In this document: positions 1-20,326 of the stretch, one piece after another
How positions within the stretch are numbered: the first letter of the stretch is position 1
How the letters are laid out: the number at the start of each line of letters is the position of its first letter
Source of the DNA: Escherichia coli
GTDB lineage: Bacteria; Pseudomonadota; Gammaproteobacteria; Enterobacterales; Enterobacteriaceae
Reading direction: 5' to 3' (one strand)
Length of the DNA: 61,695 nucleotides
Assembly: GCF_003334385.1 (NCBI RefSeq)
Contig: NZ_QOWN01000027.1
Position numbers and translations under genes: made by a program
Notes under the pieces: generated by a model
Told to the model about the DNA's origin: nothing
The model's input: only the letters and a program-made list of their open reading frames with translations
Database searches by the model: none

Positions 1-2040
1 GCAGCGAAGACATCCGAAACGAACGCGAAAGCGTCGGAAACCAGCGCAGAATCCTCAAAAACGGCTGCCGCATCGTCCGCCAGTTCGGCGGCGTCATCGG
101 CATCATCTGCGTCTGCTTCAAAAGATGAGGCGACCAGACAGGCGTCAGCAGCGAGGGGCAGCGCCACGACGGCATCCACGAAGGCGACAGAGGCTGCTGG
201 CAGTGCGGCAGCGGCAGCACAGAGCAAAAGTACGGCAGAATCCGCAGCAACGCGCGCTGAGACAGCGGCAAAACGTGCAGAGGATATTGCATCCGCCGTG
301 GCGCTTGAGGATGCAAGTACGACGAAAAAGGGGATAGTACAGCTCAGCAGTGCGACCAACAGCACATCTGAAACGCTTGCCGCGACACCGAAGGCAGTTA
401 AAGCAGCGAATGACAATGCGAATGGCAGGGTACCATCTAACCGAAAAGTTAACGGGAAAGCACTGACTGCGGATATAACATTAACACCGAAAGATATTGG
501 CACTTTAAATTCAGTAACGATCTCTTTCTCTGGCGGGGCAGGGTGGTTCAAACTGGCAACGGTTACCATGCCACAAGCGAGTTCCATCGTTTACATCGCA
601 TTGATTGGTGGCGCTGGTTACAACGTCGGCTCCCCACAGCAGGCAGGCATTTCAGAACTGGTTCTACGAGCAGGCAATGGAAACCCCAAAGGGATTACCG
701 GAGCTTTGTGGAAGCGTACAGCCGTCGGATTAACGAATTTCGCCTGGATCAACACATCCGGCGATACATATGATATTTACGTTGAGATTGGCAATTATGC
801 GACGAGTGTAAATATCCATTGGGATTGTACTACAAATGCGTCAGTTTCTATTTATACCTCGCCAACATATTCAGCGAGTAAGCCTTCCAGCGTTACCGGT
901 GGTGTTGTTTATACGATGTATAGCTCACATCAGAAACCTACACCATCAGATATTGGAGCGCTGCCAACGACTGGAGGGACTATTTCAGGTCCGTTGTCTG
1001 TTACTGATGGGATCACCGGGGCACTGAAGGGGAACGCCGATACCGCGACGAAACTTGCGGCAGCCCCAAAAATTAACGGTGTTAAGTTTGATGGCTCGGC
1101 GGATATTAACCTCACGCCGGAAAATATTGGTGCATTTGCCCGACGTTCGACGGGGGCTTATGCGGATTCGGATGGAGCCGTTCCCTGGAATGCCGAATCA
1201 GGCGCTTACAATGTCACCCGCTCTGGCAACAGCTATATTCTGGTTAACTTCTATACCGGAGTCGGAAGTTGCCGGACCTTGCAGATGAAGGCACATTACA
1301 GAAATGGAGGTCTGTTCTACCGTTCCTCAAGAGATGGCTATGGTTTTGAGGAAGACTGGGCAGAAGTTTATACCTCGAAAAATCTTCCACCAGAAAGCTA
1401 CCCAGTCGGCGCACCAATCCCGTGGCCATCAGATACCGTTCCGTCTGGTTATGCCCTGATGCAGGGGCAGACTTTTGACAAATCTGCTTACCCGAAACTT
1501 GCAGCCGCTTATCCGTCAGGTGTGATCCCTGATATGCGTGGCTGGACGATTAAGGGCAAACCTGCCAGTGGTCGGGCCGTATTGTCTCAGGAACAGGACG
1601 GCATTAAATCGCACACCCACAGCGCCAGCGTATCCAGTACGGATTTGGGGACGAAAACCACATCGTCGTTTGATTACGGCACTAAATCCACGAATAACAC
1701 TGGTGCGCATACCCATAGTGTTAGCGGTACGGCTGCTTCAGCCGGTGCACATACCCATTCGATGACATTTGTTTCAGGTGGTTCCAGTGGTGCTCCGGGA
1801 AGTGGATCACCTGATTATTCTAAATACAGTGTTAACACTTCTTCTGCAGGCGCTCATACGCACTCTGTATCGGGTACTGCTGCAAGCGCAGGTGCACACG
1901 CACATACTGTCGGTATTGGTGCTCATACGCACTCCGTTGCGATTGGTTCACATGGACATACCATCACCGTTAACGCTGCTGGTAACGCGGAAAACACCGT
2001 CAAAAACATCGCATTTAACTATATTGTGAGGCTTGCGTAA
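1..2040 (+). CDS. stfQ: Prophage side tail fibre protein, 5'-partial (reading frame open from base 1 of the window)
   Basis: Frame 1 is open from position 1 and is continuous with the 580-aa ORF 298..2040. Ala/Ser-rich N-terminal region, tail-fibre-like motifs ([25 protein letters not shown]), His-rich C-terminal repeats. Stop overlaps the tfa start (TAATG). Symbol inferred from adjacency to tfa/pin/ydfK/ydfJ. Confidence 0.75.
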
Positions 2041-2615
2041 TGGCATTCAGAATGAGTGAACAACCACGGACCATAAAAATTTATAATCTGCTGGCCGGAA
2101 CTAATGAATTTATTGGTGAAGGTGACGCATATATTCCGCCTCATACAGGTCTGCCAGCAAACAGTACCGATATTGCACCGCCAGATATTCCGGCAGGCTT
2201 CGTGGCTGTTTTCAACAGTGATGAGGCATCGTGGCATCTCGTTGAAGATCATCGGGGAAAAACCGTCTATGACGTGGCTTCCGGCGACGCGTTATTTATT
2301 TCTGAACTCGGTCCGTTACCGGAAAATGTTACCTGGTTATCCCCGGAAGGGGAGTTTCAGAAGTGGAACGGCACAGCCTGGGTGAAAGATGCAGAAGCAG
2401 AAAAACTGTTCCGGATCCGGGAGGCGGAAGAAACAAAAAACAGCCTGATGCAGGTAGCCAGTGAGCATATTGCGCCACTTCAGGATGCTGTAGATCTGGA
2501 AATCGCAACGGAGGAAGAAACCTCATTGCTGGAAGCCTGGAAAAAGTATCGGGTGTTGCTGAACCGTGTTGATACGTCAACTGCACAGGATATTGAATGG
2601 CCAGCACTGCCGTAG
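2040..2615 (+). CDS. tfaQ: Tail fibre assembly protein (191 aa)
   Basis: 191-aa ORF immediately downstream of the tail fibre gene with a 1-nt stop/start overlap; length and context fit the Tfa chaperone family. Confidence 0.8.
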
Positions 2616-2712
2616 GGTAAAACATATAAATTCTATAATTAGATGTATCTTTCCATTTACGGCAAGGAAGGGGGCTTGGAAGACGTAAAGCATCTCACAC
2701 CGAGATTATTTT

Positions 2713-3303
2713 TTATATGTCAGGTGTCTGAAGTTTTGCTTTGGCTCTTAAAATGGTTTGCCGCGAGGTTTTGAATTCCCGGGCAATGGCACTTATACTT
2801 ACACCTGACTTAATTCGTTCGAATACCACCTGTTTCTGTTCTTCATTTAACACAGGTGGTCGACCAAAACGTTTCCCTGCGCCGCGGGCTCTTACTATCC
2901 CGGAATGAGTGCGTTCAAGTAAAAGGTCTCGTTCAAATTCAGCGACTGCTGAAATTACGTGCATCATCATTTTTCCTGTTGGACTGGTCAGGTCAATGCC
3001 CCCCAATGCTAAGCAATGCACTCTGATACCTGTTTCGGTCAGTTGTTCCACTGTTTTCCTGATATCCATTGCATTACAACCAAGGCGATCCAGTTTTGTC
3101 ACAATCAATTGATCACCACATTTCAGGCGAGCAAGCAACCGGTTAAAACCAGGACGCTCACTGGTTGCTGCTGAGCCGCTAATGTGTTCTTCGATTATTT
3201 GCTGAGGTTTGATTTTAAAACCTGCACTTTCGATTTCCCGGCGTTGATTTTCGGTGGTCTGATCCAGCGTTGATATCCGACAGTAAGCAAAAATTCGAGA
3301 CAT
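2713..3303 (-). CDS. pinQ: Serine-recombinase DNA invertase Pin (196 aa)
   Basis: N-terminal [20 protein letters not shown] with the catalytic Ser in the CRIST motif typical of Hin/Gin/Pin invertases; C-terminal helix-turn-helix; convergent with tfa. Confidence 0.85.
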
Positions 3304-3434
3304 AGTGAGACTCTATACGAAATTGGTGTTCATATCATAATGCATCTCAGAAAATAATTTTGATTATTTTTGTGCATATTTGTATGTACACGTTCGAAAA
3401 TAAACGAATGCGTATGCAACCCCGTAACTTTGGT

Positions 3435-3460
3435 GAGACCCAAAATCGATTTTGTGAAAA
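3435..3460. promoter_or_regulatory. Perfect 14-bp palindrome CAAAATCGATTTTG (3441..3454) about 138 bp upstream of the pin start; candidate invertase crossover site or operator
   Basis: Palindrome read directly from the sequence. Half-sites CAAAA/TTTTG resemble gix/hix-type crossover half-sites. Function is not established. Confidence 0.3.
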
Positions 3461-3619
3461 ATGGCTTTAACTCGGTTTGTTTTTCGAGTTCCGGGCGGAC
3501 TCAAGGAAGAAGAATAGTGTTGCGTGTTATTTTAACCAGATTTCAAGTTGTTTGGTCGTGGAAAAGTGGAGCAAAATGTTGTTAAAGTGGAAAAATGATA
3601 AAAAAGTAAGTTTATTATA

Positions 3620-3853
3620 TTACATTTTACCATTTAAATTTTGGTTGTCTTTAAGAACTGATATCGCTGTTTGTAATAATTCTTTGTTATCCAGCCATGA
3701 TTTTTTCTTTATGTTTCCTTCAATGTAATCAAGCAATGTTCTGGTATTGATAGGTCTTCCCTGTTTTGCTACTTCCACTACAGCATCCCCTAGGATAATT
3801 CTTACTTCAGGAAGCTGCGCAGGGAACCACTTTAGGGTGTCTTTTGATTTCAT
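3620..3853 (-). CDS. ydfK: Prophage cold-shock-associated small protein YdfK/YnaE family (77 aa)
   Basis: Protein recognised as YdfK-like from memory of the K-12 sequence. Start taken at the internal ATG (MKSKDTLKW...), which gives 77 aa; the ORF track extends to 3886. Confidence 0.65.
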   Translation of the reverse strand: MKSKDTLKWFPAQLPEVRIILGDAVVEVAKQGRPINTRTLLDYIEGNIKKKSWLDNKELLQTAISVLKDNQNLNGKM

Positions 3854-4636: not shown

Positions 4637-5920
4637 ATGGATTTCCAGTTATATTCGCTCGGCGCAGCGTTAGTGTTTCATGAAATATTTTTTCCTGAAT
4701 CATCAACGGCAATGGCGTTAATTCTGGCAATGGGAACCTACGGTGCAGGTTATGTGGCGCGTATTGTCGGAGCATTTATTTTCGGCAAAATGGGCGACAG
4801 AATAGGGCGTAAAAAAGTGCTCTTTATTACCATCACCATGATGGGGATCTGTACCACCTTAATTGGTGTGTTACCGACCTATGCACAGATTGGTGTTTTT
4901 GCACCCATCTTGCTGGTGACGTTGCGTATTATTCAGGGGTTGGGTGCAGGTGCGGAAATTTCCGGTGCCGGTACGATGCTGGCGGAATATGCGCCAAAAG
5001 GTAAGCGCGGAATTATCTCCTCATTTGTGGCTATGGGAACTAACTGCGGAACCTTGAGCGCAACGGCAATCTGGGCCTTTATGTTCTTCATTCTCAGTAA
5101 AGAGGAACTGCTGGCGTGGGGATGGCGTATACCGTTCCTGGCGAGCGTTGTCGTGATGGTCTTTGCTATCTGGTTGCGTATGAATCTGAAAGAAAGCCCG
5201 GTCTTTGAGAAGGTTAACGACAGTAACCAACCGACAGCAAAACCTGCACCTGCTGGTAGCATGTTCCAGAGCAAATCCTTCTGGCTGACAACAGGGCTGC
5301 GTTTTGGTCAGGCGGGTAACTCCGGGTTAATTCAGACTTTCCTTGCAGGCTATTTAGTGCAGACGTTATTGTTTAACAAAGCAATTCCAACAGATGCATT
5401 GATGATCAGTTCGATTCTCGGCTTTATGACCATTCCGTTCCTTGGTTGGTTATCCGATAAAATTGGTCGCCGGATCCCGTATATTATTATGAATACCTCC
5501 GCGATTGTGCTGGCATGGCCAATGCTTTCTATCATTGTAGATAAAAGCTATGCCCCGAGCACCATTATGGTTGCACTGATTGTGATTCATAACTGTGCGG
5601 TGCTGGGATTATTTGCTCTGGAAAACATTACCATGGCAGAAATGTTCGGCTGTAAAAACCGCTTTACCCGGATGGCTATTTCTAAAGAAATTGGTGGTCT
5701 TATCGCTTCCGGTTTTGGTCCTATCCTGGCGGGTATTTTCTGCACCATGACGGAATCCTGGTATCCGATCGCCATTATGATCATGGCATATTCAGTGATT
5801 GGTTTAATCTCTGCGCTGAAAATGCCAGAGGTGAAAGACCGTGATTTAAGTGCGCTGGAAGACGCTGCGGAAGATCAACCGCGTGTTGTAAGAGCTGCGC
5901 AACCTTCCAGAAGTCTGTAA
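4637..5920 (+). CDS. ydfJ: MFS transporter YdfJ, probably N-terminally truncated at the prophage junction
   Basis: 427-aa ORF with MFS motif A (GKMGDRIGRKK) only about 50 residues from the N-terminus, suggesting the first transmembrane helix is missing. Upstream DNA is AT-rich prophage-like sequence. Confidence 0.7.
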   Translation: MDFQLYSLGAALVFHEIFFPESSTAMALILAMGTYGAGYVARIVGAFIFGKMGDRIGRKKVLFITITMMGICTTLIGVLPTYAQIGVFAPILLVTLRIIQGLGAGAEISGAGTMLAEYAPKGKRGIISSFVAMGTNCGTLSATAIWAFMFFILSKEELLAWGWRIPFLASVVVMVFAIWLRMNLKESPVFEKVNDSNQPTAKPAPAGSMFQSKSFWLTTGLRFGQAGNSGLIQTFLAGYLVQTLLFNKAIPTDALMISSILGFMTIPFLGWLSDKIGRRIPYIIMNTSAIVLAWPMLSIIVDKSYAPSTIMVALIVIHNCAVLGLFALENITMAEMFGCKNRFTRMAISKEIGGLIASGFGPILAGIFCTMTESWYPIAIMIMAYSVIGLISALKMPEVKDRDLSALEDAAEDQPRVVRAAQPSRSL

Positions 5921-20035: not shown

Positions 20036-20326
20036 TCACGGTTTAATGACGTTCAGGGAGGTCTGGCGTTTTGGCGGTTGCGGGTATAGCGTGTCGTTAC
20101 CCCGAAAAGAAGTCCTCTGAATATATGATAAGTTGTCAAGGTTATTAAATATCTTTTTTGTGGCTGAGTTGATGTTTAAAGACGTGCGCCACTCTTCATT
20201 ACATATTATTGTACTAAGTGCATCAATAAAATCCTTTAAAACTTCTTTTACCTGCGGTGCAATATTACGTACGGGAAAATCATCAGGAAGAGATATGTAA
20301 TTGCTGATGCTTACTGGCGTAACCAT
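20036..20326 (-). CDS. Hypothetical 96-aa ORF, unassigned (possibly a remnant)
   Basis: ORF from the track only; AT-rich, no recognisable domain. Sits where I expect yneK in the K-12 reference. Confidence 0.2.
   Translation of the reverse strand: MVTPVSISNYISLPDDFPVRNIAPQVKEVLKDFIDALSTIICNEEWRTSLNINSATKKIFNNLDNLSYIQRTSFRGNDTLYPQPPKRQTSLNVIKP

Follow-up and report, generated by a model that had tools for sequence, protein, structure and literature searches.

The segment at positions 1594-1990 very probably encodes the needle, consisting of a stem and a tip, with which the side tail fibre (Stf) of a Qin-type, lambda-like Escherichia coli prophage ends on its receptor-binding side; the fibre would be a trimer. 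This assignment is drawn from sequence comparisons of the window, which is the whole stretch of 61,695 nucleotides that was analysed. In the proposed reading, the histidine repeats of the fibre would serve as a conserved structural scaffold, and receptor specificity would reside in the tip insert between the third and fourth H-x-H motifs. The H-x-H needle of this Stf is real but ordinary, and needles of this kind are already known.

The stf gene and its neighbours

The 5' end of the window holds the end of stf, its assembly gene and an invertase gene.

1..2040, plus strand: 3' part of stf (679 codons and the stop codon), Qin-type lambdoid prophage; identified from the open reading frame, a 99.9% identical locus and PHROG tail fibre families
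2040..2615, plus strand: tfa (tfaQ), tail fibre assembly chaperone; identified from lambda Tfa, T4 gp38 and PHROG matches
2713-3303, minus strand: pinQ, serine invertase; identified from PHROG 125 DNA invertase (E 2e-69) and annotation

ORF analysis showed that frame 1 is open from base 1 of the window to the TAA at 2038-2040. Because it is open from the first base, 1-2040 is the 3' part of a gene that begins 5' of the window. In a near-identical genome, the complete stf is 3108 nt long, encodes 1035 residues and is annotated as a "prophage tail fiber" CDS. The first 4.6 kb of the window are 99.9% identical to many E. coli chromosomes, and hundreds of E. coli genomes have this same stf allele in their annotation. 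The gene order in a 99.9%-identical genome is J (gpJ)-lom-stf-tfaQ-pinQ-ydfK-ynfT-ydfJ, in which ydfJ is N-terminally truncated; the J-lom part was read from that genome and lies beyond the 5' end of the window. Comparison with lambda showed that stf takes the place of a Stf gene, after J and lom and before tfa. This gene context is directly observed, and judged by it a lambdoid prophage at the Qin site (ydfJ) has its right-hand end here.

The start codon of tfa overlaps the stop codon of stf (TAATG). The product of ORF 2040-2615 has 95% identity to lambda Tfa and 29% identity to T4 gp38 (E 6e-19), and it matches PHROG 105, tail fiber assembly (E 4e-100). A dedicated Tfa/gp38 chaperone gene is thus found directly 3' of stf, which is the arrangement of gp37/Stf-type tips. 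The gap between tfa and pin is only 97 nt. An invertible host-range segment of the Mu G, P1 C or e14 P type was considered because the pin invertase adjoins the fibre genes. No inverted repeats of the invertible-segment kind were found in 1-3700, and the palindromic site at 3439-3456 occurs a single time in the window. Membership in this class of switches was rejected because flanking inverted repeats and alternative exons are missing and there is one palindromic site.

The H-x-H motifs

Seven H-x-H motifs are encoded on the plus strand, and each of them aligns with a histidine pair of T4 gp37.

Residue 538, nt 1612-1620, plus strand: H-x-H 1, KSHTHS, aligned with T4 H883/885
Residue 570, nt 1708-1716, plus strand: H-x-H 2, GAHTHS, aligned with T4 H915/917
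Residue 584, nt 1750-1758, plus strand: H-x-H 3, GAHTHS, aligned with T4 H929/931
Residue 619, nt 1855-1863, plus strand: H-x-H 4, GAHTHS, aligned with T4 H966/968
Residue 633, nt 1897-1905, plus strand: H-x-H 5, GAHAHT, aligned with T4 H980/982
Residue 642, nt 1924-1932, plus strand: H-x-H 6, GAHTHS, aligned with T4 H989/991
Residue 651, nt 1951-1959, plus strand: H-x-H 7, GSHGHT, aligned with T4 H998/1000

The preliminary description had listed seven motifs, and exactly seven are present in the listed order within the last 142 residues. They contain 14 of the 17 His found in the 679 visible residues. When the last 150 residues were shuffled with their composition, itself rich in His, unchanged, H-x-H motifs numbered 1.2 on average, and only 3 of 200,000 shuffles contained seven. 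This result indicates that the H-x-H pattern did not arise by chance. The 14 motif histidines are also conserved, which is a direct observation: each is kept in 105-113 of 113 close homologues (93-100%), which are those with a complete C-terminus. The earlier concern that the motifs might not be conserved in homologues was therefore not borne out. The motifs had also been described as evenly spaced. In the sequence they are not, since the start-to-start spacings are 32, 14, 35, 14, 9 and 9 residues; even spacing holds roughly for the order that the motifs are inferred to take along the folded axis.

Homology to T4 gp37 and domain architecture

A phmmer search of PDB chains with the 679 residues retrieved 2XGF, which is T4 gp37 785-1026, with E = 6e-88. 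Query residues 465-679 align with chain positions 27-242, with one 1-residue gap and one 2-residue gap, and tblastn against T4 gave 69.4% identity. The two proteins share the same module from the collar to the C-terminus (215 versus 216 residues at 69% identity) and end in an identical 15-residue sequence. All seven H-x-H motifs share columns with T4 883, 915, 929, 966, 980, 989 and 998, and a homologous chaperone gene comes next in both cases (gp38 or Tfa). The homology and the motif correspondence are directly observed. The likeness to the gp37 tip, which had been put forward as an analogy, is stronger than claimed, as it is the same module with its seven motifs in register. There are also differences. 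The Stf of the window is a siphovirus side tail fibre from a temperate lambdoid prophage, whereas T4 gp37 is a myovirus long tail fibre, and the two are unrelated upstream of residue 465. The chaperone of the window is of the lambda Tfa type. The tip of the window allele, at 26 residues, lacks 2 residues relative to that of T4 and is the part where the 2XGF alignment matches poorly, so its receptor may be a different one.

In T4 gp37, the collar is formed by residues 811-881 and 1010-1026, the stem (882-931 and 960-1009) is inserted in the collar, and the tip (932-959) is inserted in the stem (PMC6957217). These T4 limits were carried across through the alignment, giving the following borders.

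1393..1608, residues 465-536, plus strand: N-terminal part of the collar, equivalent to T4 gp37 D10 811-881; from Pfam and the 2XGF alignment
1609..1758, residues 537-586, plus strand: ascending strand of the needle stem with motifs 1-3, equivalent to T4 882-931
1759..1836, residues 587-612, plus strand: tip (head) subdomain, 26 residues, hypervariable, equivalent to T4 932-959
1837..1986, residues 613-662, plus strand: descending strand of the needle stem with motifs 4-7, equivalent to T4 960-1009
1987..2037, residues 663-679, plus strand: C-terminal return to the collar, equivalent to T4 1010-1026, 97-100% conserved in the 113 close homologues

Pfam Collar (PF07484) was detected at residues 470-517 with E 9.4e-12. 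Together with the conserved C-terminal return strand at 663-679, it places the needle as an insertion in a collar. PF03335 (Phage_fiber repeat) gave six motif-centred matches. All six are weak (E 0.038 to 4.9), since this profile covers just 14 positions; nearly all of the homologues have PF03335 in their precomputed domain lists. Residues 465-679 were also modelled as a monomer with AlphaFold2 from an alignment of 30 sequences, and the model was uninformative (mean pLDDT 54.7, pTM 0.21). Low monomer confidence is expected for an obligate intertwined, metal-bound trimer.

Proposed structure of the needle

The T4 needle contains seven irons along its length, each held by histidines of three chains, and replacement of H929 or H931 by alanine abolishes plaque formation (PMC6957217). 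The T4 gp37 tip contacts the receptor, and gp38 is needed for gp37 folding (PMC6957217). A cryo-EM study from 2025 showed that the chain doubles back at the head and forms a six-stranded needle barrel, in which seven di-His motifs coordinate Fe along the needle (PMC12609058). The trimeric state, the identity of the metal and the axial geometry proposed for the window Stf are inferred from the crystal structure and mutagenesis of T4 gp37.

By this comparison, the chain would exit the collar and follow the fibre axis outward, and this ascending strand would hold motifs 1-3. After forming the small distal tip of 26 residues, the chain would return, with motifs 4-7 on this descending strand. The needle built by three chains doubled back in this way would have six strands. 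Each H-x-H motif would act together with the corresponding motifs of the other two chains, and their six imidazoles would surround a single metal ion on the three-fold axis. The metal is iron in T4, and seven motifs would give seven metal sites stacked in the core. These stacked ions would take the place of a hydrophobic core, for which the needle is presumably too thin, and would rivet it together. Residue counting suggests the collar-to-tip order 538, 651, 642, 633, 570, 619 and 584, with intervals of approximately 6-9 residues; this order follows from arithmetic on the T4 domain borders and is no measured value. In the ascending strand, the long stretch without His would then lie opposite the three closely spaced motifs of the descending strand. 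Folding of the needle would require the downstream chaperone Tfa, as gp37 requires gp38.

Variation of the tip

Sequence variation among the homologues is confined to residues 587-613. Identity to the window protein in the 113 homologues is 90-100% in the stem and 16-55% in residues 587-613; over the tip subdomain it drops to 0.34-0.40, compared with 0.9-1.0 on either side. A similar pattern was found in DNA: compared with K-12 stfR, nt 1723-1836 are 20-40% identical, and both sides are 97-100% identical, through tfa and pin. The borders of this cassette between the window allele and K-12 stfR lie inside the conserved H-x-H stem DNA. This cassette structure is directly observed. The stf module has matches in 3904 of 5426 genomes of an E. 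coli genome collection, in up to 6 places per genome, and many of the alleles there give two separate matches to the query that leave out its middle. The tip sequence of the window allele is unlike those of T4, lambda and StfR.

These findings suggest that the conserved His repeats are the constant scaffold and that the variable, His-free tip is a swappable cassette. Variability of the tip is expected if it contacts the receptor, as in T4 and as predicted for Ur-lambda with OmpC. Residues 587-612 are a candidate receptor-contact cassette. Variation appears to come mainly from swapping of the tip, by way of the conserved stem DNA, among alleles that belong to different prophages.

The same data bear on the location of the histidines. 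His-rich surfaces can bind metals or phosphates, and the His pairs might in principle be surface-exposed ligand or metal-sensing sites that touch the receptor, for example through LPS-bound cations, and not an internal core. Nothing specific to this fibre favours such an arrangement, and it is extremely improbable. In the T4 structure, which is 69% identical, the histidines face the axis and bind iron. The histidines are the most conserved residues, while receptor contacts are expected to be variable, and the variable tip is His-free. In addition, the same H-x-H stem is found in phages of Escherichia, Salmonella, Yersinia and Vibrio, in which the tip differs in both sequence and length. An internal row of metal-binding histidines is the preferred reading.

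The repeats and recombination

The motifs had been described as embedded in near-identical repeats of approximately 60 nt. This is correct for the peptide, in which two 20-residue repeats are identical at 18 of 20 positions, and incorrect for the DNA, in which 1701-1762 and 1848-1909 are identical at 39 of 62 positions (63%). Nearly every codon differs synonymously between the two copies, and among these are serine switches of the AGT/TCT and AGC/TCG types. No array in the H-x-H region was reported by Tandem Repeats Finder, even with the score threshold set to its minimum, and a repeat search of the region gave only 20-nt units at 70-90% identity. The longest exact repeat within 1594-1990 is 14 nt long (at 1852 and 1921). 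Tandem repeats at the DNA level are therefore ruled out, as no array was found, and the repeats are diverged peptide units. Synonymous divergence under a constant peptide points to an old duplication that selection has held at the protein level.

It had further been suggested that the repeats drive recombination. As a recombination device, near-identical direct repeats within the gene would expand, contract or reshuffle the tip and thereby vary receptor specificity. The copies are poor substrates for intragenic homologous recombination, because they are 63% identical in DNA and their longest match is 14 nt. RecA-dependent exchange needs roughly 20-30 nt, and 14 nt falls below this length. Some observations nevertheless support a weaker form of the suggestion, namely the position of the tip cassette borders inside H-x-H stem DNA, the variation in motif number, the paired extra units of the eight-motif alleles and one deletion. 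Whether repeat number varies among alleles was checked, and it does: among the close homologues, 2 alleles have 5 H-x-H motifs, 8 have 6, 87 have 7 and 6 have 8. The Rac StfR has seven. The number ranges from 4 to 9 in phages of Vibrio, Yersinia and Salmonella and in phages of P2-like, T4-like and Felixounavirus types. The deletion was found in one natural allele (L012/P0080), a singleton in a rearranged contig. Here 147 nt are missing in frame, exactly between the two repeats, and the junction lies at a microhomology of 8 nt, GGTGCACA; the tip and two motifs are lost with them. Because the whole tip and two metal sites are lost in such a context, this deletion looks like damage and not like variation. 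Going by their titles, studies by Tetart et al. from 1996 and 1998 reportedly describe host-range change via gp37 duplications and recombination between conserved motifs; exchange of the tip between prophage alleles is in line with these titles. The 1996 study reportedly places the duplication endpoints in His-containing motifs. A literature search found no paper that uses the term "His box" with gp37.

A recombination device is nonetheless quite unlikely. Almost all codons of the copies have changed synonymously, no tandem array exists, the sole deletion found resembles damage, and seven motifs, no more and no fewer, are retained in 87 of 113 alleles. Recombination at conserved flanks, between alleles from different prophages, matches this pattern; a built-in intragenic switch does not.

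The locus also allows a reading as a relic, in which a decaying cryptic prophage no longer makes the fibre and the His repeats have no present function here. Qin is a defective (cryptic) prophage in K-12, and the locus has the Qin position, with tfaQ, pinQ, ydfK and a truncated ydfJ. Moreover, pinQ no longer has any invertible segment, and many database homologues are fragments or odd fusions. However, all 679 visible codons are in an intact frame, and the 1035-residue gene lies in an intact-looking J-lom-stf-tfa tail module of a 99.9%-identical genome. Conservation covers all 14 His as well as the stem, and almost all differences between the repeats are synonymous, a pattern that indicates long purifying selection on the protein. 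Loss of function is thus unlikely, though less so than an intragenic recombination device, and it would bear on the present use of the element and not on its identity as a Stf needle.

Number of metal layers

The alleles with eight motifs, which are lambda and four prophage alleles, contain an extra 10-residue, His-free unit, FDYGTKTTxS, in the ascending strand. The same alleles also gain a 9-residue HxHxVxIGA unit in the descending strand. The presence of both extra units together suggests paired indels that would make the needle longer by one layer. According to published work, needles with more di-His motifs may be correspondingly longer (PMC12609058). It can be tentatively hypothesized that the number of metal layers is an adjustable, selected trait, and that needle length (4-9 layers) and the swappable tip are tuned to the depth of the host surface (O-antigen or capsule). 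This hypothesis is speculative and rather more doubtful than probable. If it is true, the tip of the window allele could define an uncharacterised receptor specificity.

Status and related systems

Lambda-like sequences gave rise to gp38 and to the C-terminus of gp37 in T4 (PMC3157838), and the T4/lambda receptor-binding family has already been described (PMC9659904). The H-x-H iron needle, the homology of gp37 and Stf, the Tfa/gp38 chaperones and the proposed relation of di-His number to needle length are all published (PMC6957217, PMC12617516, PMC3157838, PMC12609058). The present finding adds little that is new beyond annotation of the Stf allele. Its practical value lies in that annotation, which fixes the borders of the collar, stem and tip. 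The 78-nt tip cassette is the piece to swap or mutate in host-range engineering on a lambda or T4 chassis.

The comparison with the T4 gp37 and lambda Stf tips that had been proposed was carried out, and collar, needle and tip architecture is shared by all of them. The Stf of Ur-lambda, which is represented by orf-401/orf-314 in lambda PaPa, resembles the window Stf in the gene order J, lom, stf, tfa, in its 95% identical Tfa and in the same C-terminus. Lambda Stf differs in having eight H-x-H motifs, with one extra 10-residue unit (FDYGTKTTGS) in the ascending strand and one extra 9-residue unit (HxHxVxIGA) in the descending strand relative to the window allele. Its tip is longer than the window tip and unrelated to it. 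In both sequence and structure, lambda Stf is similar to the gp37 tip, and it is reported to bind OmpC, the receptor predicted for Ur-lambda (PMC12617516).

StfR of the Rac prophage in E. coli K-12 (b1372), which is accompanied by TfaR and PinR, has the same stf-tfa-pin arrangement and the same number of motifs. Its tip cassette, corresponding to nt 1723-1836, differs from that of the window in sequence, as given above, and by 4 residues in length. The mid-fibre region at nt 420-1158 of the window is without a counterpart in stfR. The chromosomal sites are also different, as the window stf is at the Qin site (ydfJ) and stfR is in Rac.

Membrane-piercing spikes such as P2 gpV, Mu gp45 and their relatives have one H-x-H per chain, and in the trimer these motifs make up an octahedral site for a metal on the three-fold axis (PMC11821841, PMC12609058). 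They share the chemical logic of the metal site with the window needle. In contrast, the spikes have a single site at the apex of a triple beta-helix, and the window needle would have a stack of seven in a doubled-back, six-stranded structure. No sequence homology between the window needle and the P2 gpV/Mu gp45-type spikes was detected in this analysis. The Stf module itself is common to siphoviruses, T4-like and P2-like myoviruses, Felixounaviruses and others, with 696 matching records in the phage collection.

Needle length in natural alleles of the side tail fibre

Eight H-x-H motifs occur in the alignments in lambda (L003, 1824–2471) and in the homologous proteins P0061, P0104, P0105, and P0113. 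The ascending strand of these alleles carries an additional 10-residue FDYGTKTTxS unit, alongside which the descending strand carries an additional 9-residue HxHxVxIGA unit. These findings suggest paired indels by which the needle is longer by one metal layer. The six-motif proteins P0112 and P0114 are arranged differently, with two FDYGTK units and ascending motif 3 missing.

A natural deletion allele (Logan contig ERR3061932_142, L012 988–1902, encoding P0080) was compared with window 1701–1909. It has a 147-nt in-frame deletion between both peptide repeats, whose junction is the 8-nt microhomology GGTGCACA, and through which the hypervariable tip and two H-x-H motifs are missing. This allele is a singleton, and the N-terminal part of P0080 is fused to unrelated sequence with a TMP_2 match.

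Upstream fibre and stf–tfa junction

The fibre part upstream of the collar (window 1–1392) is a mosaic. Stf residues 84–149 and 375–470 have matches in two structures of tail fibre protein S from phage Mu, 5YVQ (whole-chain E-value 4.5e-10) and 8JU3 (1.4e-33). The following domain lies in this part:

Stf residues 106–145, Pfam match to Phage_fiber_2 (PF03406)

The K-12 Rac fibre gene stfR lacks a counterpart of window nucleotides 420–1158, whereas both flanks are 92–98% identical. At the other end of stf, its stop codon overlaps the start codon of the assembly chaperone gene tfa (TAATG, window 2038–2042), which suggests that fibre and chaperone are translationally coupled.

The pinQ locus and prophage boundary

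Three features lie downstream of tfa, with pinQ at a distance of 97 nt:

2713–3303, minus strand, pinQ serine invertase (PHROG DNA invertase match, E-value 2e-69)
3439–3456, 18-nt near-palindrome CCCAAAATCGATTTTGTG, roughly 135 nt before the start of pin
4637–5920, ydfJ, MFS transporter gene

An invertible segment beside pinQ was rejected, since no flanking inverted repeats were found in window 1–3700 and alternative exons for the fibre or for tfa are absent. The near-palindrome is present as a single copy in the whole window and may be an orphan crossover site. In the annotation of a near-identical genome, ydfJ lacks its N-terminus at the prophage boundary, which is what would be expected if the Qin-type prophage had inserted into this gene.

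Collinearity with E. coli N18-04097

E. coli N18-04097 is collinear with the window (99.9%). The two differ at or around insertion sequences (IS) of that strain, at about window positions 20084–20093, 39375–39379, and 45432–45484. In N18-04097, yneK is interrupted by IS1 and an ECSE_1600-family autotransporter gene by IS2, whereas the window has neither insertion; the region around the IS1 near hipA differs too. Because that IS2 is missing, the autotransporter may be intact in the window.
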